The translations under genes and the position numbers were made by a program. Below the pieces are notes generated by a model that searched no databases, was not told the DNA's origin, and saw nothing but the letters and a program-made list of their open reading frames with translations. This document shows, piece by piece, positions 9,356 to 34,160 of a stretch of DNA of 64,000 bases. The stretch lies in assembly GCF_001677475.2 (NCBI RefSeq), contig NZ_CP015229.1; one strand, given 5' to 3'. The first letter of the stretch is position 1. Every line of letters starts with the position of its first letter. The stretch comes from Escherichia coli (lineage in GTDB: Bacteria > Pseudomonadota > Gammaproteobacteria > Enterobacterales > Enterobacteriaceae).

Positions 9356-9568
9356 TGCGATTCTCCAGACAGGGCAAATTCCAGCACATATTACCCAAAC
9401 TTATAGGTCGCGACGAGATGACGCGTTAACACTTCTGCAAAATTCAGGATAAATAACGTCCATCAATCTCACTTTTGGCGAATGGCTGAAGCCAACGCCG
9501 TGTAGTGATATGATAGAAGTATTCGTGTCTGAGATTGTCTCTGACTCCATAATTCGAAGGTTACAGTT

Positions 9569-29962: not shown

Positions 29963-30068
29963 CACATACGCATCCGAATAACGTCATAACATAGCCGCAA
30001 ACATTTCGTTTGCGGTCATAGCGTGGGTGCCGCCTGGCAAGTGCTTATTTTCAGGGGTATTTTGTAAC

Positions 30069-30665
30069 ATGGCAGAAAAACAAACTGCGAAAAGGAACCG
30101 TCGCGAGGAAATACTTCAGTCTCTGGCGCTGATGCTGGAATCCAGCGATGGAAGCCAACGTATCACGACGGCAAAACTGGCCGCCTCTGTCGGCGTTTCC
30201 GAAGCGGCACTGTATCGCCACTTCCCCAGTAAGACCCGCATGTTCGATAGCCTGATTGAGTTTATCGAAGATAGCCTGATTACTCGCATCAATCTGATTC
30301 TGAAAGATGAGAAGGACACCACAGCGCGCCTGCGTCTGATTGTGTTGCTGCTTCTCGGTTTTGGTGAGCGTAATCCTGGCCTGACCCGCATCCTCACTGG
30401 TCATGCACTAATGTTTGAACAGGATCGCCTGCAAGGGCGCATCAACCAGCTGTTCGAGCGTATTGAAGCGCAGTTGCGTCAGGTATTGCGCGAAAAGAGA
30501 ATGCGTGAGGGTGAAGGTTACACCACCGATGAAACCCTGCTGGCAAGCCAGATCCTGGCCTTCTGTGAAGGTATGCTGTCACGTTTTGTCCGCAGCGAGT
30601 TTAAATACCGCCCGACGGATGATTTTGACGCCCGCTGGCCGCTAATTGCCGCGCAGTTGCAGTAA
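30069..30665 (+). CDS. slmA: nucleoid occlusion factor SlmA (TetR family)
   Basis: True start ATG 30069 ([17 protein letters not shown]), 198 aa, TetR-like HTH. Confidence 0.92.
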
Positions 30666-30701
30666 TATGACGCCGGATGACTTTTCATCCGGCGAGTTTC
30701 T

Positions 30702-31343
30702 TTAAACGCCAAACTCTTCGCGATAGGCCTTAACCGCCGCCAGATGTTCCGCCATTTCCGGCTTCTCTTCCAGGTAAGCAATCAGGTCTTTCAGGGTGAT
30801 GATAGAGATCACTTTGCAGTTGTAATCACGCTCAACTTCCTGAATTGCCGAAATCTCGCCGCGCCCCCGTTCCTGACGATCGAGCGAAATCAATACGCCA
30901 GCAAGCGTCGCGCCATTGGCCTGAATAATTTCCATCGACTCGCGGATCGCCGTTCCGGCGGTGATCACATCATCCACCAGCATTACGCGTCCTTGTAACG
31001 CGCTACCGACCAGATTGCCACCTTCACCATGGTCTTTTGCTTCTTTGCGGTTAAAGCAGTACGGCAGGTCCAGGTAATGATGCTCCGCCAGCGCCACGGC
31101 AGTTGTGGTGGCAATCGGGATCCCTTTGTAAGCAGGGCCAAACAGCAGATCGAACTCAATGCCGGAATCCACCAATGCTTCAGCGTAAAAACGGCCTAAC
31201 AGTGCCAGATCGCGCCCGGTATTAAACAGCCCGGCGTTGAAGAAATAGGGGCTTTTGCGCCCGGACTTCAGCGTAAACTCGCCAAACTTTAACACCTGCT
31301 TGCTAAGCGCAAATTCAATAAACTGGCGCTGATATGGTTTCAT
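30702..31343 (-). CDS. pyrE: orotate phosphoribosyltransferase
   Basis: Start at Met of [38 protein letters not shown]; 213 aa. Confidence 0.95.
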
Positions 31344-31371
31344 GCCTTCGCTCCTCATCTTACTTTTCTAC

Positions 31372-31403
31372 AGACAAAAAAAAGGCGACTCATCAGTCGC
31401 CTT
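31372..31403 (-). terminator. pyrE attenuator (intrinsic terminator between rph and pyrE)
   Basis: Minus strand reads AAGGCGACTGATGAGTCGCCTT followed by a T8 run, between the rph stop and the pyrE start. Confidence 0.8.
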
Positions 31404-31408
31404 AAAAA

Positions 31409-32125
31409 TCAGTTTGCCAGCGCCGCCTTCTGCGTCGCTACAATGGATTCGATTCCCCCTCGGGCCAGCGCCAACAAGGTGAGTAACTCTTCATGGGTGA
31501 ACGGCTCGCCTTCTGCCGTCCCCTGCACTTCAATGATGCGCCCGTCTTCGGTCATCACTACGTTCATGTCGGTCTCTGCGGCTGAGTCTTCAACGTATTC
31601 CAGATCGCAAACCGCTTCGCCGTTCACAATTCCGACAGAAACTGCGGCTACCATCCCTTTCATCGGGTTGGTTTTCAGCTTGCCGTTTTCCACCAGCTTC
31701 TGTAGCGCATCTGCCAGCGCCACGCAGGCACCCGTAATCGACGCGGTACGCGTGCCACCATCAGCCTGAAGCACGTCGCAGTCCAGCGTAATGGTGAACT
31801 CACCCAGCGCTTTCAAATCTACTGCCGCACGAAGAGCACGGGCGATCAGACGCTGGATTTCCATGGTGCGTCCACCCTGCTTACCTTTCGCCGCTTCACG
31901 CGCGTTACGGGTGTGGGTAGAACGTGGCAGCATGCCGTACTCTGCGGTGATCCAGCCCTGGCCCTGACCTTTCAGGAAGCGCGGCACGCCTTCTTCAATA
32001 GAGGCGGTACACAACACTTTGGTATCGCCAAATTCGACCAGCACCGAGCCTTCTGCATGTTTTGTATAGTTACGAGTCAGGGTAACGGGACGCACCTGAT
32101 TATTGCTACGGCCTGCTGGACGCAT
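31409..32125 (-). CDS. rph: ribonuclease PH (intact)
   Basis: Start at [32 protein letters not shown] gives 238 aa with intact C-terminus. Confidence 0.93.
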
Positions 32126-32251
32126 ATTGAAATCTCCGGCTTGAAACAAATGTGGCTGCGCATTATACGGACTTCCGGCGGTTATTCCTATCCTGACAAG
32201 GCATCGATGGCTATAATCCTTCCACCTCTCCTTTTATAAACAGGAACGTCT

Positions 32252-33115
32252 ATGATCCGCAGTATGACCGCCTACGCCCGGCGTGAAATCAAGGGTGAAT
32301 GGGGGAGCGCAACCTGGGAAATGCGCTCGGTAAACCAGCGTTATCTGGAAACTTACTTTCGTCTGCCGGAGCAGTTCCGTAGCCTTGAACCTGTCGTTCG
32401 TGAGCGTATTCGTTCTCGCCTGACGCGCGGTAAAGTGGAATGTACCCTGCGCTATGAGCCAGATGTTAGCGCACAAGGTGAGCTGATCCTCAACGAAAAA
32501 CTGGCTAAACAGCTGGTAACTGCCGCGAACTGGGTGAAAATGCAGAGTGACGAAGGGGAAATCAACCCGGTTGATATTCTGCGCTGGCCAGGCGTGATGG
32601 CAGCCCAGGAGCAGGATCTCGACGCGATTGCCGCTGAAATTCTCGCGGCGTTGGATGGTACGCTGGACGACTTTATCGTCGCGCGCGAAACCGAAGGTCA
32701 GGCGCTGAAAGCATTGATCGAGCAGCGTCTGGAAGGCGTCACCGCCGAAGTGGTCAAAGTCCGCGCCCATATGCCGGAAATCCTGCAATGGCAGCGTGAG
32801 CGTCTGGTCGCGAAGCTGGAAGATGCTCAGGTGCAACTGGAAAACAACCGTCTGGAGCAGGAGTTGGTTCTGCTGGCACAACGAATTGACGTTGCCGAAG
32901 AACTGGACCGCCTCGAAGCGCATGTCAAAGAGACCTACAACATTCTGAAGAAAAAAGAAGCGGTTGGCCGTCGTCTGGACTTTATGATGCAGGAGTTCAA
33001 CCGCGAGTCGAACACTCTTGCTTCGAAGTCTATCAATGCCGAAGTGACAAACTCCGCCATCGAGCTGAAAGTGTTGATTGAGCAGATGCGCGAGCAGATT
33101 CAGAATATTGAGTAA
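32252..33115 (+). CDS. yicC: YicC family stress-induced protein
   Basis: 287 aa; MIRSMTAYARREIKGEWGSATWEMRSVNQRYLE. Confidence 0.9.
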   Translation: MIRSMTAYARREIKGEWGSATWEMRSVNQRYLETYFRLPEQFRSLEPVVRERIRSRLTRGKVECTLRYEPDVSAQGELILNEKLAKQLVTAANWVKMQSDEGEINPVDILRWPGVMAAQEQDLDAIAAEILAALDGTLDDFIVARETEGQALKALIEQRLEGVTAEVVKVRAHMPEILQWQRERLVAKLEDAQVQLENNRLEQELVLLAQRIDVAEELDRLEAHVKETYNILKKKEAVGRRLDFMMQEFNRESNTLASKSINAEVTNSAIELKVLIEQMREQIQNIE

Positions 33116-33274
33116 CTCGTAACACTAATTCTTACTTTTCAGCCTTCACAAATGCCGCCCACTCAAACAGAGCGGCATTTTTCTTCCCCGCAACTTCAAT
33201 TCTGTTTTGCGTGCCTGCTCCAGATTTTGCGATGTTTTTTTGCCCAGCACACTGAGAACGTGAGATACTCACAG

Positions 33275-33290
33275 CTGTATATAAATACAG
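33275..33290 (+). promoter_or_regulatory. LexA (SOS) box upstream of dinD
   Basis: CTGTATATAAATACAG, a perfect CTGT-N8-ACAG palindrome 46 nt upstream of the dinD ATG. Confidence 0.8.
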
Positions 33291-33335
33291 TTACAGATTT
33301 ACTTTCTTTGCAATCGATATCACATGGAGTGGGCA

Positions 33336-34160
33336 ATGAACGAACATCATCAACCTTTTGAAGAAATACGGCATTATGGCACTGAAGGGCAAGAATTTTG
33401 GTCAGCGAGAGAATTGGCACCGTTACTGGATTATCGGGACTGGCGCAATTTTCAAAAGGTACTTACCCGCGCGACTCAAGCGTGCGAAGCCAGCAATCAA
33501 GCTGCATCTGACCATTTCGTTGAAACCACCAAAATGGTTGTATTAGGTTCAGGGGCTCAACGAGAACTTGAAGATGTTCATCTCTCCCGCTATGCCTGTT
33601 ACCTGGTAGTACAAAACGGCGACCCTGCGAAACCGGTTATTGCGGCAGGGCAAACTTATTTTGCTATCCAGACCCGACGGCAGGAGCTGGCTGACGATGA
33701 AGCTTTCAAGCAACTTCGTGAAGACGAAAAGCGTCTTTTTCTGAGAAATGAGTTGAAAGAACATAACAAACAATTAGTTGAGGCAGCGCAGCAAGCTGGG
33801 GTAGCGACAGCTATCGATTTCGCCATATTTCAGAATCATGGTTACCGGGGACTGTATGGTGGATTAGATCAGAAAGCCATCCATCAGCGGAAGGGGCTGA
33901 AAAAGAGTCAGAAGATCCTGGATCATATGGGTTCAACAGAACTGGCGGCTAATCTCTTTCGAGCTACCCAAACAGAAGAAAAACTCAAGCGGGATGGCGT
34001 GAATTCAAAACAGCAAGCTAACACCACACACTTTGACGTGGGTCGCAAGGTGAGGCAAACCATTCAGGAACTTGGCGGAACCATGCCTGAGGAGTTGCCG
34101 ACCCCGCAGGTCAGCATCAAGCAGTTGGAAAACAGTGTAAAAATTACAGAGAAAAAATAG
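33336..34160 (+). CDS. dinD: DNA damage-inducible protein D
   Basis: Start at MNEHHQPFEEIRHYGTEGQEFWSARELAP; 274 aa; preceded by LexA box. Confidence 0.9.
   Translation: MNEHHQPFEEIRHYGTEGQEFWSARELAPLLDYRDWRNFQKVLTRATQACEASNQAASDHFVETTKMVVLGSGAQRELEDVHLSRYACYLVVQNGDPAKPVIAAGQTYFAIQTRRQELADDEAFKQLREDEKRLFLRNELKEHNKQLVEAAQQAGVATAIDFAIFQNHGYRGLYGGLDQKAIHQRKGLKKSQKILDHMGSTELAANLFRATQTEEKLKRDGVNSKQQANTTHFDVGRKVRQTIQELGGTMPEELPTPQVSIKQLENSVKITEKK

Follow-up and report, generated by a model that had tools for sequence, protein, structure and literature searches.

Intact rph and the rph-pyrE attenuator in an Escherichia coli strain distinct from MG1655 and W3110

The 64,000-nucleotide (nt) stretch of Escherichia coli DNA analyzed here (the window) carries a full-length rph gene, an intrinsic terminator directly behind it, and pyrE, and we are highly confident that together these form the wild-type E. 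coli rph-pyrE bicistronic operon with its intercistronic, translation-coupled attenuator. The rph-1 allele of K-12 strains MG1655 and W3110 is absent from the window, which has five G's and not four at the site of that mutation. The wild-type operon and its attenuator are already known, and there is nothing new in their presence in the window. Our own evidence concerns the anatomy of the site, its identity with the K-12 element, the stability of the hairpin, its covariation across species, and the conserved spacing between the rph stop codon and the stem.

The rph reading frame and the rph-1 allele

The following features of rph are referred to below.

31409..32125, minus strand: rph, encoding RNase PH, 238 codons plus TGA, wild-type allele (open reading frame, translation, TIGR01966, and WP_001247093.1)
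31409..31411, minus strand: TGA, the rph stop codon (sequence)
31455..31459, minus strand: G5 run, shortened to G4 in MG1655 and W3110 by the one-base rph-1 deletion (alignment to NC_000913.3)
31438..31440, minus strand: TAG, at which the rph-1 frame ends prematurely; not in frame in the window, where it is silent (MG1655 translation)

On the minus strand, rph runs from an ATG at 32125 to a TGA at 31411..31409, with an uninterrupted translation of 238 amino acids. The product scored 380.8 bits against the RNase PH equivalog TIGR01966 (NCBIfam), for which the cutoff is 141.5 bits, with residues 2 to 236 matching profile positions 1 to 235 of 236. All 238 residues, including an intact C terminus, are identical to RefSeq WP_001247093.1, which is the common and widespread RNase PH of E. 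coli. The original prediction, made from the letters of the DNA, had proposed a full-length protein of 238 amino acids in a region at 31372-32125, and both the length of the protein and the limits of the region, from the start codon of rph to a point shortly beyond the T run that follows the gene, proved accurate. No rph promoter stood out convincingly in a consensus scan; the TATAAT at 32167..32162 is perfect but is accompanied by only a weak -35 element and was not taken as part of one.

The reference for comparison was MG1655 (NC_000913.3), in which rph is annotated as "truncated RNase PH." Over 840 nt, the alignment of rph to this reference contained 12 substitutions and a single indel, an extra G in the window that lies in the G run and reads GAGGGGGAA (G5, 31459..31455) in the window and GAGGGGAA (G4) in MG1655. 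The G missing from the MG1655 run is the rph-1 frameshift. The MG1655 coding sequence translates into 228 amino acids ending in ...ARGESNPL*, and the TAG at which the rph-1 frame stops (31440..31438) lies 34 nt upstream of the attenuator hairpin. The alignment to K-12 rph, which had been suggested as a check, thus revealed no frameshift in the gene of the window, and the predicted difference from the rph-1 allele came down to exactly one G. A homopolymer assembly error was considered as the origin of the fifth G and rejected, since G5 is implied in more than 5,000 genomes and since translation with G5 gives the common RefSeq protein.

The same part of the window contains a 10-bp direct repeat, GCAGAAGGCG, at 31507-31516 and 31424-31433, with a distance of 83 bp between the copies (82 bp in MG1655). 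A recurrent 82-bp rph-pyrE deletion in laboratory-evolved MG1655 has been blamed on it (PMC2784333).

The attenuator and its predicted action on pyrE

Downstream of rph, the elements of the attenuator and the gene that it controls are arranged as follows.

31404..31408, minus strand: U5 spacer, from the end of rph to the hairpin (sequence)
31382..31403, minus strand: hairpin of the attenuator, an intrinsic terminator with a 9-bp stem closed by a 4-nt loop, AAGGCGACU-GAUG-AGUCGCCUU (fold, terminator scan, and MG1655 identity)
31376..31383, minus strand: terminator T8 (U8) run, which overlaps the end of the stem by two bases (sequence and terminator scan)
31351..31356, minus strand: GAGGAG, putative pyrE Shine-Dalgarno sequence, 7 nt before the ATG (inferred from the consensus; same in MG1655)
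30702..31343, minus strand: pyrE, encoding orotate phosphoribosyltransferase, 213 amino acids, the attenuator-controlled gene (open reading frame and TIGR00336)

In the RNA, rph is followed by UGA-UUUUU-AAGGCGACU-GAUG-AGUCGCCUU-UUUUUU, with the hairpin at 31403..31382. The hairpin folds with -14.3 kcal/mol compared to -4.3 ± 1.8 kcal/mol for 200 dinucleotide shuffles (z = -5.62; none of the 200 was as good), and a terminator scan picked it up independently. The predicted GC-rich hairpin with a T8 run between rph and pyrE was therefore found, and its folding survived the test; five of the nine pairs are G-C, which makes "GC-rich" a fair description of the core, and the first two T's of the T8 run pair with AA at the base of the stem. 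Since a wider stretch of 171 nt gave no significant global fold (z = -1.09), the attenuator signal is the local hairpin. A search of 30000-33500 against Rfam in a permissive E-value mode returned no family for the pyrE attenuator, and the single match, to a mammalian long noncoding RNA (lncRNA) model (E = 0.67), was discarded as a chance hit.

The spacer between rph and pyrE is 65 nt long, with 38 nt from the stem to the pyrE ATG, and all 65 positions are the same as in MG1655. The hairpin is therefore the experimentally studied attenuator of K-12 itself, beyond mere similarity to it. The protein encoded downstream scored 238.6 bits against TIGR00336 (cutoff, 106.8 bits). It carries Y90 in place of the D90 found in both MG1655 and WP_000806177.1 (codon 90, 31074-31076), which is the sole residue difference. 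Beyond pyrE, between the convergent genes slmA and pyrE, lies a 10-bp G+C-rich hairpin, CGCCGGATGA-CTTT-TCATCCGGCG, at 30671-30694, which is probably a bidirectional terminator shared by the two.

The regulation that these elements would bring about can be described from the K-12 work, as both the UTP dependence and the ribosome masking are inferred from published K-12 experiments. Transcription would begin upstream of rph and pass through the gene into the 65-nt spacer, where the 9-bp hairpin with its U8 run, 5 nt past the rph stop, would act as an intrinsic terminator and halt most transcripts before pyrE. When UTP is plentiful, RNA polymerase would outrun the first ribosome, so that the hairpin forms and transcription ends. 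When UTP is scarce, polymerase would lag on the U-rich stretch (U5 and then U8), the leading ribosome would get to the rph stop, and its footprint over the 5' arm of the stem would block the hairpin and allow read-through into pyrE. With just 5 nt (UUUUU) from the stop codon to the stem, the spacer is short enough that a terminating ribosome should cover the 5' arm, judged from the usual ribosome footprint. The G5 run would hold rph in frame to its natural stop and thereby keep the coupling intact; in rph-1, ribosomes would terminate 34 nt short of the stem and could not mask the hairpin, leaving pyrE underexpressed.

The literature on K-12 agrees with such a scheme. Passages of PMC2784333 that cite Jensen 1993 and Bonekamp 1984 describe that a 1-bp deletion in rph lowers pyrE expression and that regulation is restored when the rph stop codon is moved nearer the attenuator loop. 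Regulation by pyrimidine supply is explained there as needing an rph stop near the attenuator loop because the attenuation is coupled to translation. Passages in PMC2784333 and PMC5933015 attribute the demonstration of UTP-modulated, translation-coupled attenuation at K-12 pyrE to Bonekamp 1984 and Jensen 1993, and pyrE is likewise presented, in a passage of PMC10087573, as being under transcriptional attenuation that responds to the UTP pool. The earlier description of the site as the classic UTP-sensitive attenuator accordingly stands, with the spacer matching the K-12 element at 65 of 65 positions and the UTP response taken from the K-12 literature. The strain should not show the pyrimidine limitation or the RNase PH deficiency of MG1655-type laboratory strains.

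Conservation of the stop-to-stem spacing and alternative readings of the hairpin

A DNA-pattern scan for the PyrE N terminus yielded at least 120 loci from different species, of which we used the 111 in which rph lies directly upstream of pyrE and its C terminus could be aligned. These 111 species are other gammaproteobacteria, namely, Enterobacterales, Vibrionales, Aeromonadales, and relatives. A hairpin followed by a T run was present in 101 of them, in 87 distinct sequences; no hairpin was detectable in the other 10 of the 111 species sampled, and the arrangement is therefore not universal. Among the 101 species with the hairpin, 96 (95%) had the start of the stem 0 to 10 nt behind the rph stop codon, with a median of 6 nt. 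As a control, 141 terminator-like sites that follow other long open reading frames in the same loci had a median distance of 25 nt from the stop, and only 13% of them started within 0 to 10 nt. The distance from the hairpin to the pyrE ATG varied from 32 to 363 nt across the sampled species. When 52 distinct Enterobacterales sequences were aligned, the stem of the window was paired in 95% of cells, compared to 26 to 68% in slid controls; compensatory changes occurred at four of the nine stem pairs, and the covariation score was reached by none of 500 shuffles.

These data, together with the anatomy of the site, bear on two other readings of the hairpin. According to the first, the hairpin and T8 run would be the constitutive terminator of a monocistronic rph, and pyrE would be expressed from a promoter of its own without any regulatory coupling. 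The site does have the generic form of an intrinsic terminator, terminators just past stop codons are common, and in species where the hairpin lies as far as 363 nt from pyrE there is room for a separate promoter. In the window, however, the stem is only 38 nt from the ATG, and a crude consensus scan gave no promoter-like site between the hairpin and pyrE (31343-31382), although a weak pyrE-proximal promoter could escape such a scan. Ordinary terminators in the same genomes also do not share the tight placement behind the stop codon (13% compared to 95%). Furthermore, as the original prediction had noted, rph-1 is polar on pyrE in K-12 (PMC2784333 and PMC9997739), its frameshift lying 45 to 50 nt upstream of the hairpin, and a plain terminator combined with an independent pyrE promoter would not explain this polarity. 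Finally, contiguity of the rph-pyrE mRNA and a read-through that varies with UTP have already been reported for K-12. We therefore regard a constitutive terminator as very unlikely.

According to the second reading, the hairpin would mainly be a 3'-end stabilizer or processing site of a dicistronic mRNA and not a regulated terminator. Stable 3' hairpins commonly protect mRNA, and work from 1992, as cited in a passage of PMC10087573, favors such a role. It is, however, compatible with attenuation and does not exclude it, and taken by itself it leaves the stop spacing of 0 to 10 nt, the conserved U run, and the polarity of rph-1 unexplained. That this would be the main function of the hairpin seems to us extremely improbable. 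Translation-coupled attenuation is the reading that we retain, and we found no sequence evidence that contradicts it.

Across orders, the cores of the hairpins are unrelated (GGCGAC, ATAGCTCC, ACGCGGC, and AGCGGYTCC), and the placement of the stem 0 to 10 nt behind the stop is kept in about 86% of the 111 sampled species. Because the tight spacing has been kept despite unrelated hairpin sequences, we lean toward the view that ribosome-masked attenuation of pyrE may be ancestral to, and selected across, the whole branch that comprises the Enterobacterales, Vibrionales, Aeromonadales, and relatives, beyond E. coli and Salmonella. The cross-species spacing statistic can be seen as a modest corroboration of the ribosome-masking model that comes purely from sequence. 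Individual species deviate: in Aeromonas popoffii and in an Aeromonas metagenome-assembled genome (MAG), about 270 nt lie between the rph stop and an otherwise conserved Aeromonas hairpin, an insertion that breaks the tight stop-to-stem spacing of other Aeromonas species.

Within E. coli, a 91-nt stretch covering the attenuator was found exactly in 4,564 of 5,424 genomes, and about 840 genomes differ from the window at one to four of its positions. One natural variant (NZ_CP026580.3, 51-140, corresponding to window 31384-31389) has GTCGC in place of GTCGCC, and the loss of this C from the 3' arm makes the base of the stem weaker. The 91-nt query was split in 17 E. coli genomes. In NZ_AP045825.1 (2549-3250, corresponding to window position ~31377), an IS200/IS605-family element (tnpA) sits inside the T run directly after the hairpin, and this insertion parts the terminator from pyrE.

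Allele frequency, strain identity, and comparison with known systems

The exact 71-mer of the K-12 rph-1 allele (G4) was present in 167 of 5,426 complete E. coli genomes. Among the 60 of the 167 matches that were listed, all are laboratory K-12 strains or evident laboratory constructs, including MG1655, W3110, BW25113, J53, HMS174, and MFDpir. The 72-mer of the window around the G run occurs exactly in 505 genomes and with at most three differences in 4,749 more, and the 168 genomes in the 90 to 95% band correspond approximately to the rph-1 set. A K-12-type 72-mer with G5 was found exactly in 180 complete genomes, among them DH5alpha, DH10B, DH1, MC4100/BW2952, C600, and NCM3722, and also in eight records labeled "K-12 MG1655." In line with this, rph-1 has been described as common to EMG2, MG1655, and W3110, with WG1 and NCM3722-like K-12 strains lacking it (PMC9997739), and true rph+ revertants have been made from MG1655 (PMC5933015).

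An intact rph can therefore not exclude K-12, or even a derivative of MG1655, by itself, because G5 is the normal state and is also found in K-12 lines. The original prediction had taken the intact gene as confirmation that the strain does not derive from MG1655 or W3110; that conclusion is correct, but the reasoning that led to it is weak in view of the 180 K-12-type genomes with G5. What decides the matter is the divergence over about 56 kb, the 12 substitutions in rph, and an 8-kb island foreign to K-12. Identity to MG1655 is 95.5 to 97.8% over 55.8 kb of the window, short of the near-identity that would be expected of a K-12 strain, and the 8 kb at 56081-64000 are without a counterpart in the syntenic K-12 region. 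For strain typing, this calls for caution: E. coli as a rule carries an intact rph, many K-12 laboratory lines included, and the gene is useless on its own for calling a strain K-12 or not.

For the 25 kb around rph (20000-44999), the best match among complete E. coli genomes was only ~98%. The 1.7-kb rph-pyrE stretch (30600-32300) had a best match of 99.7% and matched only 141 genomes at 99% or more. These comparisons suggest as the source an Escherichia lineage of which few members have been sampled.

Several other differences from K-12 were seen in the window. The 8-kb island follows yicS and encodes EilA (a HilA-family regulator), type III translocon and needle-tip proteins similar to SipB and SipD, and the inverse autotransporter IatC; an island with eilA, the type III secretion system (T3SS) translocon, and iatC is present in 750 of 5,426 E. 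coli genomes (best match, 97.1%). The htrL gene, which occupies about 1.3 kb between kbl and rfaD in K-12, is missing from the window, and a stretch of 61 nt at the htrL joint (9460-9520) is without a match in MG1655. From yicC to the start of dinD, 213 nt (33369-33581) are too diverged from MG1655 for alignment by megablast.

The closest known system is the K-12 rph-pyrE operon itself (Poulsen/Bonekamp/Jensen 1984-1993). The gene order dut-slmA-pyrE-rph-yicC-dinD is the same, and the intercistronic region of 65 nt, with the hairpin, the U8 run, and the pyrE Shine-Dalgarno sequence, is 100% identical. The difference lies in rph: the MG1655/W3110 reference has rph-1 (G4) and the window the wild-type G5, and the RNase PH of the window differs from that of MG1655 at two residues (A138 instead of V and T216 instead of I). 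Compared to the wild-type rph of natural E. coli isolates (WP_001247093.1), the window differs in nothing of substance. A second attenuator with shared logic is that of the E. coli pyrBI leader, which is also UTP sensitive and coupled to translation. There, a U-rich region of pausing lies ahead of an intrinsic terminator, and at low UTP the hairpin is blocked by a ribosome that follows closely. The pyrBI operon uses a dedicated short leader peptide for this, whereas in rph-pyrE, the role of "leader" falls to the 3' end of rph, a full-size, functional gene.
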